From: Candidatus Peribacteraceae bacterium
GTDB taxonomy: Bacteria; Patescibacteriota; Gracilibacteria; Peribacterales; Peribacteraceae
Assembly: GCA_028711345.1 (NCBI GenBank)
Contig: JAQTSK010000002.1
Span: 228-64,227 of the forward strand
Direction: 5' to 3'
Length of the DNA stretch: 64,000 nt
Part shown: positions 5,235 through 62,413 of the stretch, in pieces
Layout of the letters: every line of letters starts with the position of its first letter
Position numbering within the stretch: position 1 is the first letter of the stretch
Program-made: the position numbers and the translations under genes
The notes under the pieces: model-generated
Database searches by the model: none
What the model was told of the DNA's origin: nothing
The model's input: the letters and a program-made list of their open reading frames with translations, nothing else

Positions 5235-5279
5235 GCTGCGGTTCGAAAACCGCAGCGGCGGCGATTTTCGAATCGCCGC
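5235..5279. repeat. REP-like tandem hairpins
   Basis: GCTGCGGTT-CGAA-AACCGCAGC and GCGGCGATT-TTCG-AATCGCCGC, bracketed by CGTAGC..GCTACGG. Confidence 0.8.
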
Positions 5280-5340
5280 TACGGAGATAAAAGATTCGAA
5301 TCAGGTTAATTCCGTATGACAGGAGTAGAATTGCCGCACT

Positions 5341-5580
5341 ATGAAAAACTCCTGCCAAAGTTGCTTGATGCCGCTTGCCAAAGATCCGGGGAAGAGCGGA
5401 TCGGATCAGTACTGCAGTTACTGCTTCAAAGACGGGAAGCTGGCCTACGAAGGGAATGATCTGAAAGAGTTCCAGCGACGGTGCTTCGAAGGCATGACTG
5501 CCGGTGGCATGGGCAGGTTCAAAGCCCGATTCTTCACCTGGCTGGTTCGCTTCGCGCCGCGGTGGAGAAGGAAGCAGTAG
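5341..5580 (+). CDS. putative zinc-ribbon domain protein
   Basis: CQSC..17 aa..CSYC motif in a 79-aa ORF. Flanked by related hairpin repeats. Confidence 0.55.
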   Translation: MKNSCQSCLMPLAKDPGKSGSDQYCSYCFKDGKLAYEGNDLKEFQRRCFEGMTAGGMGRFKARFFTWLVRFAPRWRRKQ

Positions 5581-5820
5581 GGGGAGCGACTGAGGTTCCA
5601 TCTTTGCTTGTCGGGTTGTGCGGAGCACATTTTCAGTTGAGCCAGCCACGTCGTTCGTTATTGGTGAGTGATACGAAATTAATCTGAATTGTACCGTAGC
5701 GGCGATTCGACAATCGCCCGAAGTGAGCAATCTGATTTCGCAGAACATCGAAAAAAGTATGACTTCTTTGTTAGGGAACTTTCCTTGCTTTTTCAGAGGT
5801 TCCTAAGGAAAAAGGATCGT

Positions 5821-31789: not shown

Positions 31790-31882
31790 TGGTCGGATGA
31801 TACAGGAAGCATGAGGCTGATCCCGGAAAGCTCATGCCGTAATCGTGTGATTCCAATCCTGTGTGTTCGGATTGCTCGCACC

Positions 31883-32263
31883 TCATAGCACATGCTTCAT
31901 CACCCAGTTTCCCGCACCGATCACGCAGCTCACGACGATCCAACCCATGATGCCGCCGGTGATGGCGAGTGAGACGATGGCGGGATCCATGAGCAGGACG
32001 AACTGATAGACGAGCCAAAGGAAGAGGCCGTTCACCACGATCGTTGTCGCCAGAGTGAAGAGGAGATGGAAGGGGAAGGTGACGACGTTCAGGAGCGGGC
32101 GCAGGAAGAGGTTGCCGAGTGTCAGGAGGCTTCCGATGATCACGTAGGCGGGGGCACCGCCGAAGACTGCAACGTACTGCGGCAAATAGCTATTTACGCC
32201 GAGGATCAGCAGGATGTTGCCGACGGCGCGGAGCGCGATGCGGGATGGAAGGGAGAGGGACAC
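31883..32263 (-). CDS. DUF360 / phage-holin-4_2 family membrane protein
   Basis: 126 aa, four TM segments, typical DUF360 layout. GTG start. Confidence 0.6.
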   Translation of the reverse strand: MSLSLPSRIALRAVGNILLILGVNSYLPQYVAVFGGAPAYVIIGSLLTLGNLFLRPLLNVVTFPFHLLFTLATTIVVNGLFLWLVYQFVLLMDPAIVSLAITGGIMGWIVVSCVIGAGNWVMKHVL

Positions 32264-32702
32264 AAATTGAAAATTGTAAATTGAAAAAGGAAAATTAATG
32301 TTTTGAATTATTTTCTTTCGAAGATTTTATGATGGCCACCAAGAGGCGGATGATCTCATTAATATCACTCAAAAGAGAAGTGCCTTCTACTTGGCTAAAA
32401 TAACAGCTATCACGCAGGAGGAGAATCCAGAACCGTGTTTCATATGCCTCTTTCAGTGCAATAGAAAGCTTTGAAATGAAATCTGCCCTACTTTGCCCTT
32501 GCAGCGATTCCTCGATGTTCGCGCCAACACTTGTTCCTGAGCGCAGCAGTTGCTTGCTCATTACATATTCCCTTTTCGATTCCGTAAGAAATTGATATGC
32601 CTTCACAATTCGCAGTGCAAAGGCAAAACTTTTCTCCCGGACGATATTCTTTTTCTCCATAACAATTTTCAATTTTCCTTTTTCAATTATCAATTGTAAA
32701 GC
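32263..32702. repeat. inverted-repeat-flanked cassette carrying four-helix-bundle gene 1
   Basis: Perfect 18-bp inverted repeat AATTGAAAAAGGAAAATT (32279-32296) / AATTTTCCTTTTTCAATT (32671-32688) within longer low-complexity arms. Confidence 0.75.
32295..32660 (-). CDS. four-helix-bundle protein ('23S rRNA intervening sequence protein' family)
   Basis: ..SFAFALRIVKAYQFL......YVMSKQLLRSGTSVGANIEE......DFI.KL.IALKEA.ET.FWL.LL... Start set at MEKKNIV. Confidence 0.8.
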   Translation of the reverse strand: MEKKNIVREKSFAFALRIVKAYQFLTESKREYVMSKQLLRSGTSVGANIEESLQGQSRADFISKLSIALKEAYETRFWILLLRDSCYFSQVEGTSLLSDINEIIRLLVAIIKSSKENNSKH

Positions 32703-35700
32703 TCACTTCTTCTTGAACCGGATTTTGAGCTTCCTACGGACGACGTCGATCTCATGAATTTCCGCCTCGTCGCACGGACGGATCTCCGAACGGGTTTCGC
32801 TTTCGATGAGATCCTTGTGAGCGGAGACAATCTCATCGCCGCCGTCGACCTGCAACGTGATGGTGTCGGTGAACTCGAGTCCGCTTTCTTTGCGAAGCGT
32901 CTGGATTGCATGGATCAGTTCTCGGGCAGCACCCTCATTCTCCAATGCTTCATTTACAGCAATATCCAGCGTGACAACGATGCCTCGGTTGGCGGCGACG
33001 GTCTGCCCTTCCTTGCTCTGATGAATGATCTTCGCCTCCTCGGGTGACAGTGTCTCGCCGAGGATGATGATGACACCGTCCTTCTCCTCGAATTTGCCTT
33101 CTTTTCCTGCCTTGATCACTTCCTGCACTTTCTTGCCGAGTCGCGGACCGACTTTGCGCGCATCGACCTGTACAATTGAAGATGCGAGTGCGGAGGCATC
33201 CGTCGTTCTGATGACCTGTTTCACGTTCAGTTCCTCTTTGATCAGCTCCGTGACGACACCGACGGCATCGGACGGCGGCAGAGCGAAAGTGACGGATTGC
33301 AGAGGTTGGCGGACGCGGATCTTGGCATCCGATCGGAGTGAGAGGCCGAGAGTTACAACCTGCCGGGTGCTTTCCATCAGTTGCAGCAGCTTCTGATCTT
33401 CTTCATTGATTTGAACGGACACCGGCCAGTCGGTGAAGTGGATGCTGCCGTGATCTTCTTCGACGAGATTGAGGTAGATCGCCTCGGTGACGAACGGGCA
33501 GAACGGCGCGAGCAATTGGCAGTTGGCGATGATGACGCGGTAGAGCGTATCCAGCGCATCGGTTCCGCCTTCTTCCTTGGCGCTGAAACGCCGCCTGCTC
33601 AACCGGACATACCAGTTCGTCAGATCATCGATGGAATCGGCGAGGTGCGCGCAGGTGGCGGAGAGGTCGTAGCCGTCCAGTTCCGTCGTCATATTGTTCA
33701 CCAGTTCCTGCGTCTTGAGGATGATCCAGCGATCCAGCTGATTCGTCGATGTCCCATTCTTGAGCGACGAATCCAACGACGGTTTCCAGTTCGCCGCATT
33801 GGCGTACGTCACGAAGAGCCGGTACGTGTTCCACAGCGGCAGGAGCACTGATCGCACCGTCTCCTCCACCAGCTTCTCAGAGAACCGCAGATCTTCTCCT
33901 CTGACTGCGGGTGATGCCATCAATGCAAACCGGACGGCATCGGCGCCGTGTTTCTTCACCACTTCCGTCGGCTCGGGGTAGTTCTTGAGGCGCTTACTCA
34001 TCTTCTTGCCGTCCTCCGCCAGCACGATCCCGTTGACGACGCAGTGCTTGAACGCGGGGCATTTGAACAGAGCACTGGAGAGCACCATGAGCGTGTAGAA
34101 CCACCCGCGCGTCTGATCCAGCCCCTCCGCGATGAAGTCCGCGGGGAAGCCGACCGGACTGTCCGATTTCACCTCGAACGGGAAATGATCCTGCGCGTAG
34201 GGCATGGAACCGGATTCGAACCAGCAATCAAGCACTTCCTCGATGCGGCGCATCTGCGGACGGAGTGTGATGTTCACGGGAGCGCCATTCCTTGGTTGTA
34301 CCTGCGGCATATCTTCATATGCGATGCCTTCCGCGACCATCCTGAACGCTTGTGAGAAGCCTCCATGTGATATGAGGAGCACGCGTTTCCCCGCATATTC
34401 TTTCAAGAGAAAATCATGTGCACGCTGCGCCCGTTCGATGAATCGGTCGAATGATTCACCGTTCGGCCCGGCGGAACGCGAAAAGCAAATACCTTTGAAG
34501 GCCTTGTCATTCAGCAATGATTCAATGTCCTTCACCGGTTTCATGTCCCACTCCCCGACATTCCGTTCGGTGAAGAGTTCCCCTTCTTTCACGTCCGCAA
34601 CCCCCAGTTCCTTGGCGATGATTGTTGCCGTTTCTTTCGCCCTCTTCAGGGGAGAAGAGATGATCACATCAAACTGCTGACCTTTCAGCTGCTCGGCGGC
34701 TTGCTTCGCCTGTGTCCTGCCCGTCTTGTTCAGTTTCGTGTCCGCTCCGCTGCCCTGTACGATTTTCAGTTTGTTCAAGTCGGTCTCCCCGTGCCTGACC
34801 AGCGTCACTTCCACCTCACTGCCTTTATTGCCCTTACTGCCTTCACTGCCTTTATTCCAAACAATTCCATCCACCGATTCCTTATGCAGATCCATCTGCG
34901 CATTCCTCTCGTGGTCCCAGTAGAAGGTGCGCAGCGACGCGAGAGCGGGGTACGGCTGATGCACGATCTTGTTCGGCTCCTGTCCCGTGAAGAAGTGGAC
35001 AATGTTCATGATGGGGTCCGCGTGTGTCACGATCGAAATGGATTCTCCCCGATGCTTCGGCAGAATTTCCTTGAGGAACGATTCCACGCGTCTGCCGACG
35101 TCCGCCCACGTCTCCATGCCGTGGAAGTGGTAGATGCTTTCCACCTGCCCCTGCTCCAGTTTGTGCGCTCTGCGTTCGCGGACGAAGGTGAGATCGTCGA
35201 AATCCACGTGCTTGCCCTCGTACTCCCCGAAATCCACTTCCTTCAGCCGCTCATCGATGATAATTTTTGCGCCCGTTGCCTTGGCCACGGCTTCGGCCGT
35301 CTCCCGCGTGCGCCTAAGCGGCGAGCAGTAGATGACCTTCACGGGCAGACTGTCGGCCTGCTCTTTCAGCCGGTCAGCGAGCGCTTTCGCTTGCTGTTGC
35401 CCGTTGTCCGTGAGAGGAGTGGACGGTTCCTTGCACTGGTAGATTTTGTCGACGTTGCCCTGACTTTCCGCATGACGCGAGATGAAGATTTTCGTGAAGC
35501 GCGTCGGCGCTTTGGCCATCAGTTCGCTGCGCGAGCCGATCACTTCCACCTCGCCGGTCGTCGTATTGCGCCAGATGGGCAGCGGCGTGCCCCAGAAGCG
35601 GTTTCTGGAAATCGCCCAGTCTCTCGCTCCCTCCAGCCATTTGCCGAACCGTCCGTCGCGGAGGTGGGAGGGTACCCACTGCGTCTGTGCATTGGACTTG

Positions 35701-37016
35701 AGCATTGTTTCCTTGATCTTCTCCACCGCGACGAACCACGAGCTGGTCGCGTAGTTGAGGAGAGGTGTGTCGCACCGCCAGCAGTGAGGGTAACTATGGG
35801 TGACGGTGTAGCTGTCGAAGTGGCGGCCCATCTCCTTGAGTTTGCGGATGATCGCCTTATCGGTGCTCATCGGATCTTTGCCTTCGGGCTTGATCAGCAT
35901 GCCCTTAAAATCAGTGACTTCACTGAAGAAATTGTTATCCGTCGTCACGTGGTGCAGGACGTCGACCTTCAGCTTCTTGGCCAGCTCGAAGCCGTCTTCG
36001 CCGTAGGAGGTCGTCATGTGGACGATGCCCGTTCCTTCGTCCTCCGACACTTCCGGATGCAGCAGAATGTTGAATGCTTTCTCGCCGTACGTGACGGGCT
36101 TTCCTTCTGCGGCCGATGACGGCAGCACCTTGTCGACGAAATAGTTGAAGAGGGGAACGTACTTCTTGCCGACCAGTTCCGATGCTTTGATGTCGCCGGT
36201 GATCTCGTATGTCCGTTTCTTGAAGATCTTCTCGACCAGCTTTTTGGCGACAATGTACGTCGTATCGCCCTCTTTGACTTTGACGTAGTGAATCTCATCT
36301 TTCATCGCCAGCCAGATGTTCCCCGGCAGCGACCACGGCGTCGTCGTCCAAGCGAGGATCACCGTTTTCGGATCGTCTACGAGTGGAAAGGTCATGATTA
36401 CGGATTGGTCCGTCCGGTCCCGGTAGCCCTGCGTTACTTCGAAATTGGAGAGCGGTGTCACGCAGCGGGGGCAGATGTGCATCGACTTGTATCCCTCGTA
36501 GATCAGCTTCTGTTCATGGAGCTGCTTGAATACCCACCAGATACTTTCCATGTAATCCGCATCCATCGTGCGGTAATCCCAGTCCATGTCCACGAAGCGG
36601 CCGAGGCGTTCGACGGTCGATCTCCATTCCCCCGTGTAGCGCTGGACGGCGGTGCGGCAAAGGTTGTTGAAGTTGGCGATACCCAAGGTTTCGATGTCCT
36701 TCTTGGAGGTAAGCCCCTTCTCCTTTTCGATCTCGTTCTCCACCGGCAGTCCGTGGCAGTCCCAGCCGAAGCGGCGCTTCACGAACTTCCCGCGCATGGT
36801 TTGGTACCGCGGGATGACGTCTTTGATGGTGCCGGCGAGGATGTGGCCGTAGTGCGGTAAGCCGGTTGCAAACGGCGGTCCGTCGTAGAAGCTGAAGATC
36901 TCCCCCTTCTCGCGGCGGTGCATGGAGCGCTTGAAGGTGTCTTCCTCGCGCCAGTACTTCAGGATCCCGAGCTCGAGGTCGGGGAGGGATTGCTTGGGGT
37001 CAACGGAGTCGAACAT
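32703..37016 (-). CDS. ileS: isoleucine--tRNA ligase (type 2) with two inserted histidine-phosphatase domains
   Basis: HYGH and KMSKR class-I motifs; editing and anticodon-binding regions present. Extra RHAES.. (34902-35504) and RHGET.. (34257-34814) phosphoglycerate-mutase-like domains. Confidence 0.9.
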   Translation of the reverse strand: MFDSVDPKQSLPDLELGILKYWREEDTFKRSMHRREKGEIFSFYDGPPFATGLPHYGHILAGTIKDVIPRYQTMRGKFVKRRFGWDCHGLPVENEIEKEKGLTSKKDIETLGIANFNNLCRTAVQRYTGEWRSTVERLGRFVDMDWDYRTMDADYMESIWWVFKQLHEQKLIYEGYKSMHICPRCVTPLSNFEVTQGYRDRTDQSVIMTFPLVDDPKTVILAWTTTPWSLPGNIWLAMKDEIHYVKVKEGDTTYIVAKKLVEKIFKKRTYEITGDIKASELVGKKYVPLFNYFVDKVLPSSAAEGKPVTYGEKAFNILLHPEVSEDEGTGIVHMTTSYGEDGFELAKKLKVDVLHHVTTDNNFFSEVTDFKGMLIKPEGKDPMSTDKAIIRKLKEMGRHFDSYTVTHSYPHCWRCDTPLLNYATSSWFVAVEKIKETMLKSNAQTQWVPSHLRDGRFGKWLEGARDWAISRNRFWGTPLPIWRNTTTGEVEVIGSRSELMAKAPTRFTKIFISRHAESQGNVDKIYQCKEPSTPLTDNGQQQAKALADRLKEQADSLPVKVIYCSPLRRTRETAEAVAKATGAKIIIDERLKEVDFGEYEGKHVDFDDLTFVRERRAHKLEQGQVESIYHFHGMETWADVGRRVESFLKEILPKHRGESISIVTHADPIMNIVHFFTGQEPNKIVHQPYPALASLRTFYWDHERNAQMDLHKESVDGIVWNKGSEGSKGNKGSEVEVTLVRHGETDLNKLKIVQGSGADTKLNKTGRTQAKQAAEQLKGQQFDVIISSPLKRAKETATIIAKELGVADVKEGELFTERNVGEWDMKPVKDIESLLNDKAFKGICFSRSAGPNGESFDRFIERAQRAHDFLLKEYAGKRVLLISHGGFSQAFRMVAEGIAYEDMPQVQPRNGAPVNITLRPQMRRIEEVLDCWFESGSMPYAQDHFPFEVKSDSPVGFPADFIAEGLDQTRGWFYTLMVLSSALFKCPAFKHCVVNGIVLAEDGKKMSKRLKNYPEPTEVVKKHGADAVRFALMASPAVRGEDLRFSEKLVEETVRSVLLPLWNTYRLFVTYANAANWKPSLDSSLKNGTSTNQLDRWIILKTQELVNNMTTELDGYDLSATCAHLADSIDDLTNWYVRLSRRRFSAKEEGGTDALDTLYRVIIANCQLLAPFCPFVTEAIYLNLVEEDHGSIHFTDWPVSVQINEEDQKLLQLMESTRQVVTLGLSLRSDAKIRVRQPLQSVTFALPPSDAVGVVTELIKEELNVKQVIRTTDASALASSIVQVDARKVGPRLGKKVQEVIKAGKEGKFEEKDGVIIILGETLSPEEAKIIHQSKEGQTVAANRGIVVTLDIAVNEALENEGAARELIHAIQTLRKESGLEFTDTITLQVDGGDEIVSAHKDLIESETRSEIRPCDEAEIHEIDVVRRKLKIRFKKK

Positions 37017-40660: not shown

Positions 40661-41136
40661 GAGAAAGGGAGGATGAGAGGATGGAGAGGTGAGAGAGGAT
40701 GAGAGGAAGGATGTTGTGATACAATTGAAGCTTCCTATGGCAGAGCGCCCATATCAGAGGCTGATCGCTTGGAAGGAAGCTCATGCTCTCTGCCTGCGAG
40801 TATATGAGTATACGAAAAAATTTCCATCCGAAGAGCAATATGGATTGAGGTCTCAGATGCGTCGTTCAGCGTATAGCGTTCCGACGAACATAGCAGAAGG
40901 CAACGGACGAAAAACGATTCCTGACAAAAGGCATTTTTTGGATATCGCGACCGGTTCCATTGAGGAGTTGCACTACCAGTGCATTCTTGCACGTGATCTG
41001 CACTACATAACTGCCGAGGTTTGCATTGAGCTGCATGATCGCATCCAACGTACCGGTTACCTCATCCACAAACTGAGACTTTCATTGTAGATTTCTTCTC
41101 ATCCTCTCATCCTCTTTTTCTTCTCATCCTTTCTTC
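40661..41136. repeat. inverted-repeat-flanked cassette carrying four-helix-bundle gene 2
   Basis: Purine-rich arm built of GGATGAGAGG words (40661-40713). Complementary CCTCTCATCC-word arm (41092-41136). Imperfect. Confidence 0.65.
40737..41090 (+). CDS. four-helix-bundle protein ('23S rRNA intervening sequence protein' family)
   Basis: ..YQRLIAWKEAHALCLRVYEYTKKFP.EE.YGLRSQMRRSAYSVPTNIAEG......D...FL.IA.GS.EEL.YQ..LARDL.. Confidence 0.8.
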   Translation: MAERPYQRLIAWKEAHALCLRVYEYTKKFPSEEQYGLRSQMRRSAYSVPTNIAEGNGRKTIPDKRHFLDIATGSIEELHYQCILARDLHYITAEVCIELHDRIQRTGYLIHKLRLSL

Positions 41137-50265: not shown

Positions 50266-50373
50266 GGAATGTAAAATGTACAATGTAGAATGTAAAATTA
50301 TTGCTTTCCCAAGCCCAAATCGCATGCATCGCCATTCAGCATTGTACATTGTACATTCTACATTTTACATTTC
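50266..50373. repeat. empty low-complexity inverted-repeat element upstream of aroF
   Basis: 34-nt arms, 29/34 complementary (GGAATGTAAAATGTACAATGTAGAATGTAAAATT / CATTGTACATTGTACATTCTACATTTTACATTTC), 40-nt centre. Confidence 0.75.
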
Positions 50374-54391: not shown

Positions 54392-55986
54392 TGTTTGTCG
54401 TCACCCTTCCTCCATCGGCCCAGAAAAATCCCAGAGCATTCGCACTGAAGGCCAAGAAAGCCGGAGCGGATCTTCTGGAGATTCGCGGTGATTTGACTCC
54501 GAATGTGAAGGCATTGAAGTCTCCGCTGCCGTTGATTGTTTCCCCGCGGGGAAAGGGATTTGGTCTGATTGAGCGAATGAAACCGGAGTATGTGGATCTG
54601 GATATGGGGGAAGCCCCCACCCCCGACCCCTCCCCCGGGCACCTCGATCGCTTCGCTCTCTCGGTGCAACCGGGTGAGGGGAGGAAACCGAAGGTAAAGC
54701 TCATTGTGAGTTATCACAACTATGATCGAACGCCGTCCCTGTCTGATCTGCAAAAGATTGTACAAAAAATGTGTGCGAAATCCGGGACGCGGCGTCCCGG
54801 CTGCGGCGGTGTGGGGAAAATTTGGGCCATCAAAATCGCAACGAAGATTGTGGATTATAAAGATCTTCTGATTCATCGTGATTTGCATGATTGGATGAAG
54901 TCGTTTTGTAGAGCCGCAAAATTTTGCGGCTCTACAAAACAAATCGTTCTTGGCATGGGCGACAAGGCGTATTATTCCAGAATCACTTCGCCGATGCGGA
55001 ATGTGCTGACGTACACGTTTCTCCATGGATCGGAGGCGGCTGCGCCGGGGCAGTTGCCGATATCGTTCTACAAAATATTGAACCAAGGGAGCAGGTATCC
55101 TTGGCGGCCGAAGCCTTGTTTGCAGGGAATTGTTACAAAGAAGAGAGGGCGAAGGCTGCTACCTGCGGAGAAATCAGCAAAAAGTTATCAAAAGATATTC
55201 GGGATTATCGGCGGGGATCAGATTGTCCATAGCCTAAGCCCGACTATTCACAATTTGCTGTTTCAACAGTACGGCATCGATGCCCTCTACTCCTGCTTCC
55301 CGACCGATGACTTCAAAGGAACAATGAAGATTTTGGAAAAGCTCGGCATTGCAGGGTTGTCTGTCACGGCACCGTTCAAGCACGATGCCTTCGCTTTTAC
55401 GGATCAGGTCGATCCGATCGGCAAGGAGCTCGGTGCTGTGAATACGTTGATCAAGAAGAATGGCATGTGGAAGGCCTTCAACACCGATGTCATCGGCATC
55501 GAGCGTGGGTATCCGTTCCTGAAGTTAGCTCAATCGATCGCGATTCTCGGTGCCGGTGGGGTTGTCCCTGCGGTGATCGAGGGAATCAGGAGGATTAATT
55601 CTGAAGCATGTATCACAGTTTTCGCGCGTGATCCGGAAAAGGCGGAGAGGGATTTTATACATCGTTGTCATGGTTCGACTCCGCTCACCATGACAACTAT
55701 TAGGGTTTGTTTATTGGATGAGGCAATCAATGCAACTGCTGATGCTGTGATCTGCGCTGTCTCACAGGACATCGCTCTGCCTTTGCCGAAGCATGGAATA
55801 AAATCCGTGGCGATTGATCTTCGCTACGGCAAGGAAACAAAGTTCTTAAGGAGCGCAGCGGCCAAGGGCTTCCGCGTGTACGATGGACTCTCTATGCTCC
55901 TCCATCAGGCACTGGCGCAGTTTCAGCTATTCACCGGAATGACTCCCAACATGAAGAATTTTAATTATGATCAGTACTTTTCATGA
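54391..55986 (+). CDS. type I 3-dehydroquinate dehydratase fused to shikimate dehydrogenase
   Basis: AroD part ..LLEIRGD..YVDLD..LIVSYHNYDRTPS..KIATK..GMGDKAYYSRI... AroE part ..GIIG..I.HSLSP.IHN..GLSVT.PFK..AVNT..GAGG... TAATG overlap with aroA::aroK. Confidence 0.85.
   Translation: MFVVTLPPSAQKNPRAFALKAKKAGADLLEIRGDLTPNVKALKSPLPLIVSPRGKGFGLIERMKPEYVDLDMGEAPTPDPSPGHLDRFALSVQPGEGRKPKVKLIVSYHNYDRTPSLSDLQKIVQKMCAKSGTRRPGCGGVGKIWAIKIATKIVDYKDLLIHRDLHDWMKSFCRAAKFCGSTKQIVLGMGDKAYYSRITSPMRNVLTYTFLHGSEAAAPGQLPISFYKILNQGSRYPWRPKPCLQGIVTKKRGRRLLPAEKSAKSYQKIFGIIGGDQIVHSLSPTIHNLLFQQYGIDALYSCFPTDDFKGTMKILEKLGIAGLSVTAPFKHDAFAFTDQVDPIGKELGAVNTLIKKNGMWKAFNTDVIGIERGYPFLKLAQSIAILGAGGVVPAVIEGIRRINSEACITVFARDPEKAERDFIHRCHGSTPLTMTTIRVCLLDEAINATADAVICAVSQDIALPLPKHGIKSVAIDLRYGKETKFLRSAAAKGFRVYDGLSMLLHQALAQFQLFTGMTPNMKNFNYDQYFS
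54904..54939. repeat. perfect 36-nt palindrome inside the aroD coding region
   Basis: TTTTGTAGAGCCGCAAAA|TTTTGCGGCTCTACAAAA. Encodes FCRAAKFCGSTK on both strands. Confidence 0.9.
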
Positions 55987-59671: not shown

Positions 59672-60892
59672 ATGTCATTACATACGCTCATGTTCGGCTG
59701 GGAATATCCTCCTGTCCACTGCGGCGGTCTGGGAGTGGCTTGCCAGGGGATCGTTCGCGGGCTGAAAGCTCATGGAACGCACGTGACGTTGGTGTTGCCG
59801 CATGACACGGCGAGCGAGGACGGGGTATCCATCCTGACTCCCGCCGATCTGGGTGTGGCGGGATTGATCTCGGTTCAAACGAGGCTGCATCCCTACGATT
59901 CGGTGGAAACGTTCGCCGCACGTATCGCGGCTCAGGAGGCAGATCCGGCTCTGCAGGAACTCTACGGCACCGATCTCGGTGACGCGGTGGAGCGGTACAC
60001 GGCGACGGCGGTGGAACTGACGAAGAACGTGCCTGCGGACATCGTGCATACGCATGACTGGATGACGCTTGGTGCCGGCGCTCGCGCCGCCAAAGCGTTG
60101 CGTAAGCCGCTGGTGGCGCACGTACACGCGACGGAATTGGATCGCACCGAGTTCCATCCCAACGCATGGATCTACGCACAGGAATTGAAAGGATTGCAGT
60201 CTGCCGATCACGTCCTTGCCGTCAGCTCGTATACCAAGAATCTCCTCGTCCGGGAGTACGGCATCCGTGCGGACAAAATTACGGTGCTCCACAACGGCGC
60301 ATTTGCAGTGCCGACGCACAATCGACCGTTTGAGAAGCACGGGAAGCGGCATCCGCTGGTCTTATTCCTCGGTCGTCTGACGGTGCAGAAGGGCGTTACG
60401 TACTTCCTGCGTGCTGCGCGGAAGATCGCCGACCACCGTTCGGATGTCCGTTTCGTTGTCGCCGGTGACGGGTACCTGCTTCCGCAGCTTATCGCGCAGG
60501 CTTGTGACATGGGACTGGCAGACCGGATCATTTTCGCAGGCCGCGTGACGAACGCCGAGGCGCGTCAGCTCTATCGTAAAGCGGACTGCTTCGTCATGCC
60601 GTCCGTCTCCGAACCGTTCGGTCTGGTCGCTCTCGAGGCGATCACCCACGGCGCTCCGGTGGTGATGAGCCGCCAGTCCGGTGCCGCCGAAGTCATACAG
60701 AATTCTCTGCTGGTCGATTTCTGGGATACGGACAAGATGGCGGACTGCATTCTGACCGTGCTTCGCGAGGAGCCGCTGCGCCGCGCGATGCATTCGCAGA
60801 CACCGCGTATCCTCCGCAACCTCACATGGGAGCGGCAGGCGGGGAAGATCCTCGCAACATACCGGAATGTCATCGGAGGGCGGAATGGATAA
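59672..60892 (+). CDS. glycogen-synthase-like glycosyltransferase (GT4/GT5)
   Basis: ..FGWEYPP..CGGLGVAC.G..., ..GRLT.QKG......A......D.RFV.AGDG...., ..PS.SEPFGLVALEA...G.P.V... Confidence 0.8.
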   Translation: MSLHTLMFGWEYPPVHCGGLGVACQGIVRGLKAHGTHVTLVLPHDTASEDGVSILTPADLGVAGLISVQTRLHPYDSVETFAARIAAQEADPALQELYGTDLGDAVERYTATAVELTKNVPADIVHTHDWMTLGAGARAAKALRKPLVAHVHATELDRTEFHPNAWIYAQELKGLQSADHVLAVSSYTKNLLVREYGIRADKITVLHNGAFAVPTHNRPFEKHGKRHPLVLFLGRLTVQKGVTYFLRAARKIADHRSDVRFVVAGDGYLLPQLIAQACDMGLADRIIFAGRVTNAEARQLYRKADCFVMPSVSEPFGLVALEAITHGAPVVMSRQSGAAEVIQNSLLVDFWDTDKMADCILTVLREEPLRRAMHSQTPRILRNLTWERQAGKILATYRNVIGGRNG

Positions 60893-61003
60893 TTGATAAT
60901 TGAAAATTGATAATTACTTTCAGGCGTTGCCTTCTCTCCATCGAACACAACTTGATTCACAGCACAAAAAATTATCCATTATCCATTCTCAATTATCCAT
61001 TAC
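60883..61003. repeat. empty low-complexity inverted-repeat element between the GT and GH57 genes
   Basis: 34-nt arms 60883-60916 and 60970-61003, 29/34 complementary. The left arm contains the GT stop codon. Confidence 0.75.
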
Positions 61004-61007
61004 ACCA

Positions 61008-62300
61008 ATGTCCTCCAAGCGCATCACCACTCCGGCAGTCTGCTTCTATTTTCAGGTTCACCAGCCGTACAGGTTGAATGACCTGCGTATCACGGACATC
61101 GGCAGTGTCGGGCCGGCCGGATACTTCGATGCGACGAAGAACCATGCGATCTTCCGCAAGGTGGCCGAAAAATGCTATCTGCCTGCGAATGCGCTGATGC
61201 TGACGTTGCTCCGCGATCATCCGGATTTCAAGGTCGCATACTCGCTCTCCGGCGTCTTCCTCGACCAGTGCCGCGAGTATGGACAGGATGTGCTGGATTC
61301 CTTCCGCGCATTGGCGAAGACAGGACAAGTCGAATTTCTGGCTGAAACGTACTATCACTCGCTCTCTTCTCTGTTCTCACTCGGTGAGTTCTGTGAGCAG
61401 GTGAAGCGGCATGCCGATACCATTGAGGAATTATTTGGAGAACGCCCCACCGTGTTCCGCAACACCGAGCTGGTGTTCTCGAACGAGATTGCCGAGATCG
61501 CACGTCTGCTCGGGTTTAAGGGAATTCTTGCCGAAGGTGCGGATCATTTGCTGAAGGGGAGAGAGGCGACAACGCTCTACCGCCCTCCGCGTTTCGCCTT
61601 GCCGTCCGCATCGAAGCGCATCATCGCACGTCACAGGATTCATCCGCGGAGCGCCGCAACGACGAAAATCCTCCTCAAGCACTACCGTCTCTCGGATGAC
61701 ATCGCTTTCCGCTTTTCGAACCGTACGTGGCCCGGTTATCCGCTGAAGTCCGAGACATTCGTTTCGTGGGTACGCGAGAACCCCGGTTTCACGACGAATC
61801 TCTTCATGGACTACGAAACGTTCGGTGAGCACCAGTGGGCCGATACGGGGATCTTTCAATTCCTAGCCGCACTGCCTGGTGAGCTCAGGCGTCAGGGTAT
61901 TCCCACGCGAACGCCATCGGAAACGATTGTCGCATGGGCACGCAGACCAATGCCGGTGCTGGATGCGCACGTGCCGTACTCATGGGCCGACACCGAACGC
62001 GATCTGTCAGCATGGAGAGGCAATCCGCTGCAGGAAGCCGCTCTCAGGAATATTTACAGTTTGGAATCACAAGTGAAGGCGTCGGGTGATCTGTTCCTCC
62101 TCGATACGTGGCGCAGACTCCAGACGTCCGATCACTTCTACTACCTCTGCACGAAGTACTGGAACGACGGCGACGTGCACCGGTACTTCAGTCCGTACGA
62201 ATCGCCGTACGAGGCGTACCGGAGGTATAGCCACGCAATCGAAGATTTGCGGTTGCAGCTGGAAAGAGCAGCCGAAGGGAAATTGATAATGGAAAATTGA
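61008..62300 (+). CDS. glycoside hydrolase family 57 (alpha-amylase/branching-enzyme-like)
   Basis: ..CFYFQVHQPYRL..., ..YLPAN..., ..DYETFGEHQW... Start moved to ATG 61008; the track N-terminus translates a repeat arm. Confidence 0.8.
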   Translation: MSSKRITTPAVCFYFQVHQPYRLNDLRITDIGSVGPAGYFDATKNHAIFRKVAEKCYLPANALMLTLLRDHPDFKVAYSLSGVFLDQCREYGQDVLDSFRALAKTGQVEFLAETYYHSLSSLFSLGEFCEQVKRHADTIEELFGERPTVFRNTELVFSNEIAEIARLLGFKGILAEGADHLLKGREATTLYRPPRFALPSASKRIIARHRIHPRSAATTKILLKHYRLSDDIAFRFSNRTWPGYPLKSETFVSWVRENPGFTTNLFMDYETFGEHQWADTGIFQFLAALPGELRRQGIPTRTPSETIVAWARRPMPVLDAHVPYSWADTERDLSAWRGNPLQEAALRNIYSLESQVKASGDLFLLDTWRRLQTSDHFYYLCTKYWNDGDVHRYFSPYESPYEAYRRYSHAIEDLRLQLERAAEGKLIMEN

Positions 62301-62413
62301 TAATGGAAAATTGTCTGTCTTTCTCATTGATGACCATGGTATTTACAACTCCAATCTTCATGTCCTCTCTGCACAAAATAATTATCAATTTTCAATTATC
62401 CATTATCAATTCC
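62278..62413. repeat. empty low-complexity inverted-repeat element between the GH57 and GH15 genes
   Basis: Arms 62278-62314 and 62380-62413 built of ATTGATAATGGAAAA words. The right arm is 32/34 complementary to 60883-60916. Confidence 0.7.

Follow-up and report, generated by a model that had tools for sequence, protein, structure and literature searches.

The closest described systems are the intervening sequences (IVSs) of ribosomal RNA (rRNA). The IVS in helix 45 of the Coxiella burnetii 23S rRNA is 428-444 nt long and has a 28-bp terminal stem (Warrier et al. 2016, PMC4990558). Two to three tandem GACAGAT heptamers, varying between strains, lie just upstream of its S23p gene's start codon, and the stem is where RNase III has been mapped to cut (PMC4990558). 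The same paper also cites RNase III cleavage of the Leptospira rRNA IVS. Here we describe a cassette of similar design that lies outside rRNA, in a 64,000-nt stretch of a Candidatus Peribacteraceae bacterium (GenBank assembly GCA_028711345.1, contig JAQTSK010000002.1, positions 228-64,227; hereafter the window). The cassette fills the spacer downstream of ileS. It consists of a gene for a four-helix-bundle (4HB) protein of the S23p family (PF05635/TIGR02436) between two inverted arrays of heptamer words.

Relatives of this protein have been found in several settings. PF05635 is homologous to Avd (PMC10053308), and that paper cites the Avd of the Bordetella phage BPP-1 diversity-generating retroelement (DGR; PDB 4DWL). 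Genes named 23S_rRNA_IVP have been found wedged between cas genes (PMC3936711) and in rRNA inserts of the Candidate Phyla Radiation (CPR; PMC11270868). Heptamer repeats have been described separately. Three papers report abundant arrays of GGGAATC in Xanthomonas and GGGGAYT in Nostoc (Rehm et al. 2015, PMC4692102), TAACTGA arrays in Beggiatoaceae (MacGregor 2015, PMC4679880), and GGACCGG and MTYCTGA repeats in Geobacter metallireducens (Aklujkar et al. 2009, PMC2700814). Like the arrays reported here, these place three to six or more heptamers between genes, often as convergent inverted pairs. They too are kept at orthologous sites, and their function is unexplained. The difference is that here every word family includes one 4HB gene, with its own words on either side. 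A term search of the three papers returned no mention of the 4HB/IVS protein family. We found no paper joining this gene family to genome-wide heptamer arrays, in a literature search that most subscription journals lay outside.

Three puzzles, 15 to more than 30 years old, are involved: the purpose of rRNA IVSs and their open reading frames (ORFs), the role of the very large TIGR02436/PF05635 family outside DGRs, and the excess of heptamer repeats in many bacterial genomes. The data below tie the three together. rRNA IVSs with an S23p ORF and heptamers, the homology to Avd, and gene-less arrays are already known in print. If 4HB proteins do recognise words of their own, IVSs, S23p proteins and the heptamers of Xanthomonas, Geobacter, Beggiatoa and cyanobacteria would be one undescribed protein–repeat system.

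A 4HB gene between inverted heptamer arrays fills the ileS spacer

The cassette lies on the minus strand at 32264-32702 of the window. It is 439 nt long, with a GC content of ~0.40 against 0.546 for the genome. Upstream is ileS (32703-37016, minus strand, 1437 aa) and downstream a 126-aa membrane-protein gene with a weak PF04020 match (31883-32263, minus strand). The ileS stop codon (32705-32703) and the right arm are 2 nt apart, and the GTG start of the membrane gene (32263) adjoins the left arm, so the cassette makes up the whole spacer. A radical-SAM gene comes next on the minus strand. The order of ileS and the membrane gene is held across the family.

Each arm consists of AATTGAA/AATTGTA/AAAGGAA heptamers in series. 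The proximal arm, 5' on the minus-strand transcript (32664-32700), is a purine-rich array, ACAATTGATAATTGAAAAAGGAAAATTGAAAATTG. It reads AATTGAT AATTGAA AAAGGAA AATTGAA AATTG upstream of the start codon. The distal arm, 3' on the transcript (32264-32296, minus strand), is the complement array, AATTTTCCTTTTTCAATTTACAATTTTCAATTT. A repeat finder pairs 32267-32296 with 32671-32700, 30 nt each and 87% complementary. Within these arms it recovers a perfect 18-bp core at 32279-32296 (AATTGAAAAAGGAAAATT) and 32671-32688, the same coordinates at which an earlier note on this DNA had placed a perfect inverted repeat. None of 200 shufflings of the flanks gave as good an inverted repeat. A chance origin of the repeat is excluded.

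The gene between the arms is intact and encodes 121 aa (32295-32660, minus strand). Its ATG, at 32660, is separated from the right arm's perfect core by 10 nt. The TAA stop at 32297-32295 shares 2 nt with the distal arm, which bears out the earlier note in placing the stop inside that arm. The same note had suggested folding the arms. Alone, they form a mini-hairpin of -23.7 kcal/mol (z = -5.4), and in the predicted fold of a 491-nt transcript the two arms pair together. The proximal arm also holds two overlapping sigma70-like matches on the minus strand at 32665-32700, TTTACA-17-GAAAAT and TTGATA-17-GAAAAT, each matching at 9/12 positions. The region has three such sites where 0.8 are expected, and the arm hexamers are weak and just upstream of the 4HB ATG. 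No intrinsic terminator was found in the cassette, and 31800-33200 has no Rfam rRNA match. A known RNA family in the cassette was considered and rejected, the best candidate being a sub-threshold chance match. Membership of an anti-phage defence system was likewise rejected, as PADLOC gave no family at E <= 0.01.

PF05635 is the only domain that a profile search finds in the ORF. The alignment takes in residues 3-108 and covers positions 1-105 of the 106 in the profile (93.6 bits against a cut-off of 33.8, E=1e-26), and TIGR02436 matches at E=1e-29 (102.6 bits, cut-off 24). Residues 3-117 match PDB 2RLD at E = 1e-34, a homology to a solved four-helix-bundle structure. That entry has five chains. 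The homologue Xcc0516 is a solved pentamer, as cited in PMC4990558. The conserved motif of the family is GxxRxxxSxxxNxxE (PMC3936711). The ileS-site protein carries R-x3-S-x3-N-x2-E (R40, S44, N48, E51) and lacks the leading G. Q37, R40, S44, N48 and E51 are invariant among the 11 paralogues of the genome.

How does this cassette compare with an rRNA IVS? It encodes the same protein family, its 439 nt compare with 428-444 nt, and the terminal repeat of each is ~28-30 bp. In both, tandem heptamers stand in the arm before the start codon and the Shine-Dalgarno sequence is poor, and both exist in gene-less versions. However, the ileS cassette lies between protein-coding genes rather than in a 23S or 16S rRNA helix. 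The genome holds 11 such cassettes, each with its own word, plus hundreds of gene-less arrays of the same words. RNase III cleavage has been mapped for Coxiella and is a prediction for the ileS cassette. By its architecture, the ileS cassette is the ORF-bearing IVS element type in a non-rRNA setting. The earlier note had proposed just such a stem-plus-ORF element outside rRNA, and the size, the stem (~30 against 28 bp) and the arm heptamers all match the Coxiella IVS.

Each 4HB paralogue is bracketed by its own word

The genome (1.77 Mb in 93 contigs, here G000) has 11 good PF05635 matches and one weak one by profile search. The 11 paralogues are diverged, with 18-55% identity to the ileS-site protein. 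The earlier note had called for a census of copies, and named a lack of others flanked by inverted repeats as part of what would refute it. That condition does not hold, as ten further copies carry inverted-repeat brackets. All ten complete 4HB copies are bracketed, with inner distances of 356-422 nt, and the 11th, at a contig end, has an array on its visible side. The lowest bracket score among the real copies is 11. Random 315-nt pseudo-genes placed in the same genome reached this score in 22 of 1500 cases, against 10 of 10 complete copies. All of the cassettes are AT-rich.

The words differ from copy to copy. Six copies have GAGCTWT, TAGGTGA, TAGCGRT, GGATGAGA, TGGTAGY and GAGGAGTCC, one each, and the other five have AAGGGCA, AATTGWA, TTAACAR, AATGGAT and GGTTTCT. 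No word family is common to two 4HB genes (P <= 1e-4 for random placement of the 11 genes among the elements), and clades of the 4HB protein track the arm words. One further cassette lies in the window on the plus strand at 40662-41121. Its 4HB ORF spans ~40737-41090 and its GGATGAGA arms lie at 40662-40683 and 41100-41121.

The GAGGAGTCC family shows a peculiarity. Its words are 9 nt long (GAGGAGTCC/GAAGAAACC) and in frame (for example at C49:4036-4077), giving acidic EESEE-type peptides, and open frames continue from the arms into the 4HB ORF (SEETEESEESEETDE...).

The same words recur in gene-less arrays and hairpins

Each cassette has words that turn up again at 2-60 further sites, either in hairpins or in arrays that stand singly. 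Inverted repeats were counted across the genome, which gave 148 pairs, mostly hairpins with loops of 5-100 nt and arms of tandem 7-9-nt words. A second detector returned 110 word-type hairpins and 319 period-7 tracts. This second detector, for inverted repeats and period 7, replaced a census with TRF, which at low score was dominated by coding period-6 and period-9 signals. By crude ORF gene calls, the median distance from a stop codon to a hairpin arm is 6 nt.

Hairpins of one family have a common vocabulary, variable word order and unrelated loops. Since the loops are unrelated to the cassette interiors, the gene-less hairpins are not simple deletion derivatives of cassettes. An origin as MITEs (miniature transposable elements with inverted repeats) by internal deletion was rejected on the lack of homology between cassette interiors and any locus. 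In the same-genus relative G001, the exact 18-mer AATTGAAAAAGGAAAATT of the ileS cassette is found at seven loci, within an AATTGAA-AATTGAA-AAAGGAA-AATTGAA-AATT array. To judge from such identical stretches, multi-word arrays are copied as units.

Three gene-less hairpins lie in the window. The one at 50268-50371 consists of AATGTAG/AATGTAA heptamers, with 31-nt arms and a 42-nt loop. That at 60884-61001 has AATGGAT/AATTGAT words, which also make up both arms around the 4HB gene of contig C20, and that at 62281-62411 belongs to the AATTGAT/AATGGAA word family. G000 yielded no 4HB gene whose arms consist of AATGTAG words. In G001 an AATGTAG-armed 4HB gene lies between apparent dnaA and thrS genes.

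Brackets are also seen around other genes. At C40:7567-8075 an L7/L12-like ribosomal protein gene (translation read by eye) lies within inverted AATGTAG-word arrays. Brackets around non-4HB genes can thus come from arrays in neighbouring spacers. Small nuclease-type genes lie inside inverted C/T-rich words (CCCTCTCCC / CCCCTCACC) at C67:20338-20816, C76:15647-16182 and C62:3130-3418. By eye alone, two of these translations are DUF559-like and one is small and GIY-YIG-like.

The ileS spacer varies among relatives while words persist

Comparing occupied and empty sites, another check that the earlier note had proposed, showed a filled site here and a G001 site without ORF and distal arm. The G001 spacer is 68 nt long and retains only the ileS-proximal arm. 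In G009 the spacer has a distal-type array only, and those of G005 and G012 hold gene-less hairpins. The cassette at the ileS site is thus, as these alignments read, a presence/absence polymorphism within the genus. In G010 (L047) the same spacer contains a nested hairpin of CCCTCTCCC/GGGAGAGGG and GGGTGAGGG words and no heptamer arrays.

Between G000 and G001 the ileS stop codon and proximal arm are identical at 40 of 42 positions, and the 3' end of ileS at only 76%. Over 25 nt, the distal arm of the ileS cassette is exactly complementary to the proximal arm as it stands in G001, so inverted copying relates the two arms.

Some words are conserved over greater distances. The cassette on contig C55 and its counterpart in G003, a member of another genus, occupy an orthologous site, and their flanks are collinear. 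Identity is 63% between the proteins and 36% at third codon positions, which means saturation at neutral sites, yet TAGGTGA/TAGGTTT/TAGGTCA words are kept in both. The words of a Xanthomonas/Pseudoxanthomonas cassette pair are likewise kept despite divergence. A need for a stem alone would permit compensatory drift. Words kept at saturation therefore suggest a constraint on the word sequence itself, which points to selection on word identity.

4HB genes and arrays occur together across genomes and phyla

The number of 4HB genes among 31 relatives ranges from 0 to 24 per ~1-Mb genome. Co-occurrence was tested in 13 genomes, this one and 12 relatives sampled at 59-400 kb each. In the six genomes that lack a 4HB gene, period-7 tracts number 0, 0, 0.3, 0.5, 1.7 and 7.0 per 100 kb, and word hairpins are nearly absent. 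In the seven that have 4HB genes, this one included, there are 10-26 tracts per 100 kb. Gene and tract abundance are correlated (Spearman 0.82, p = 6e-4; Mann-Whitney p = 0.0017; both statistics ignore phylogeny).

Among class-level relatives, 19 of 27 4HB copies have a significant bracket. We then sampled 80 loci from ~15 phyla, chosen by a motif of one subfamily (from a four-sequence alignment), of which 75 were testable. Brackets surround 59 of the 75. A score of at least 13 was reached by 53 of the 75 real loci and by none of 126 displaced controls. Of 58 arms, 45 have a period of 7 and another 8 a period of 8. The ORF has a lower GC content than its flanks in 72 of 75 loci, and inner distances have a median of 412 nt. 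The arrays also have a polarity: G-rich words come first (5') and C-rich words second, on either strand, in 53 of the 59 bracketed loci and in 9 of 10 copies of this genome. Consensus heptamers contain AG in 36 of 45 cases, where 48% is expected (p = 1.6e-5).

Xanthomonas codiaei has two PF05635 genes, one flanked by CGGGGAC/GGGGACC arrays and the other by GGGAATC/GGGGATT. Both word sets are abundant genome-wide, with 366 matches against 2 for the control for the first and 145 against 57 for the second.

A probable gene–array module and its rivals

We consider it probable that the ileS cassette is an IVS-type element outside rRNA in which an S23p/Avd-like 4HB gene and its inverted heptamer arrays form a co-inherited, selected module of intergenic spacers. 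The module would consist of one gene and two inverted arrays of three to five heptamer words. Its pentameric protein may recognise its own heptamer word in nucleic acid, and the arrays may depend on it for their making, spread or upkeep. This logic would resemble that of RAYT and REPIN, with no known enzyme. The private word of each paralogue, the conservation of words and the co-occurrence across genomes together suggest a specific partnership between protein and word, for which we put the chances at roughly even. The broadest form of the idea is more tentative. In that form each PF05635 paralogue would recognise its own 7-nt word and be required to generate, copy or maintain all of its arrays, and IVSs, S23p proteins and heptamer repeats would be one system. 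We hold this to be possible but somewhat short of an even chance.

In REPIN-RAYT systems, reportedly the subject of work by Nunvar in 2010 and by Bertels and Rainey in 2011, doublets of repetitive extragenic palindromic (REP) sequences go together with a cognate Y1 transposase. The 4HB cassettes are alike in that inverted copies of a repeat stand on either side of a gene and the repeat is scattered as intergenic hairpins, with one gene per repeat family. They are also alike in their largely vertical inheritance and patchy presence. Unlike RAYT, the 4HB protein is small and lacks the HUH/Y1 (IS200-like) catalytic motif. The repeats also differ: REPINs are fixed palindromes, whereas the 4HB repeats are tandem words in variable order around unrelated loops. 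True REP palindromes and RAYT genes are also present in this genome, as a separate system. A REP-like palindrome family (GTAGAGACGCCCGA|TCGGGCGTCTCTAC and a GCAAAA variant) occurs at 54903-54940 of the window and at ~25 other loci genome-wide. It flanks two IS200/RAYT-like genes, at C63:13623-13949 and C65:15157-15858.

In a read-through transcript from ileS, the arms would pair into a duplex of 20-30 bp that RNase III could cut. Cleavage would uncouple the ileS mRNA from the downstream membrane and radical-SAM genes, and would destabilise the 4HB message or free it with a short leader. An rnc gene is present in the genome, and the predicted stem is stable. By analogy with the Coxiella IVS, cleavage of the cassette stem could as easily prove right as wrong. 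For annotation, cassettes and hairpins of this kind split operons, here ileS from the membrane/radical-SAM cluster. They are likely RNA-processing sites, relevant to operon structures in CPR and other genomes.

The earlier note had spoken of a mobile IVS-like cassette. The IVS-like design stands, and the G001 site without an ORF fits gain or loss. Mobility is less secure. No transposase or target-site duplication is found, which leaves it unproven, and at orthologous sites vertical inheritance is seen for some cassettes. Cassettes may be gained and lost at spacers, rarely enough for some to persist vertically across genera. Mobility in the strict sense we regard as somewhat doubtful. The cassette also differs from an insertion sequence (IS) element or MITE, having no transposase domain, no visible direct repeat at its boundaries and gene-less copies with unrelated loops.

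Several results weigh against the module. A profile search finds no transposase or enzyme domain in the 4HB protein, no target-site duplication is visible at the cassette boundaries, and this analysis found no identical cassette pairs. Gene-less hairpins have nothing but words in common with the cassettes, and no hairpin loop or other locus is homologous to the cassette interiors. The stem is A/U-rich, at -23.7 kcal/mol. The co-occurrence comes from 13 partly sampled genomes (59-400 kb) with statistics that take no account of phylogeny, and G017 has no 4HB gene yet 7.0 tracts per 100 kb. Because the motif used to gather the cross-phylum loci belongs to one subfamily, the figure of 59 of 75 does not hold as a rate for PF05635 as a whole.

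Could the arrays be regulatory rather than selfish? A 4HB pentamer might bind transcript heptamers much as the TRAP ring binds GAG, and so control how transcripts of the flanking genes are processed, degraded or translated, with autoregulation where the gene lies in its own site. Arrays do lie near stop codons (the median of 6 nt) and abut starts both here and in G001. Word identity appears to be selected, and single arrays without a partner are conserved. Three to five words per arm are typical, and the solved homologues are pentameric. Two papers propose the Geobacter and Beggiatoa arrays as sites of unknown global regulators (PMC2700814, PMC4679880). Nevertheless, the patchy 0-24 copies, the AT-rich, foreign-looking composition and the presence or absence at orthologous sites look more selfish, and identical multi-word arrays at seven G001 loci require copying at the DNA level. 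We think a purely regulatory system unlikely, although it overlaps with the gene–array module and does not exclude it.

That the 4HB genes are mere passengers is far less probable still. Slippage would make generic terminator or RNA-processing hairpins, and unrelated 4HB genes would insert preferentially in their loops. Hairpins do far outnumber genes (~110 against 11), their loops are unrelated to the ORF, and gene-less hairpins occupy the same ileS spacer in relatives. But such hairpins are essentially absent where the gene is missing, every gene has a word family to itself, and the clades of the protein follow the words. At an orthologous site, arms and ORF have been inherited together across genera, and slippage fails to explain the same 9-mer words at 60 sites. 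The remaining alternative, that the 4HB gene is the Avd accessory protein of a DGR, we consider extremely improbable. PF05635 is homologous to Avd (PMC10053308) and DGRs are frequent in CPR genomes. Avd shares the four-helix-bundle fold, and its pentamers bind nucleic acid and protein partners. However, the neighbours here are ileS and a membrane-protein gene, and the armed 4HB genes adjoin no reverse transcriptase, template repeat or variable repeat. The Avd reading was rejected on the position of the genome's sole reverse transcriptase, on contig C92 beside a separate, unarmed Avd-like gene. In this DGR-like locus (C92:8860-10180) the gene is a weak Avd-like match of normal GC content, without heptamer arms, next to a reverse transcriptase of DGR type. 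The enzyme has SQxxxN and YLRYGDD motifs, is the only one in the genome and is split over two frames at a GAGAGA-type ERERERER run.

Other features of the window

At 5260-5718 of the window, a 25-nt inverted repeat (GGCGATTTTCGAATCGCCGCTACGG) encloses a 409-nt spacer with no 4HB gene and has a GCTACGG tail. The isoleucyl-tRNA synthetase encoded by ileS (32703-37016, minus strand) has two His_Phos_1 domains inserted at residues ~508-927, between its catalytic halves.

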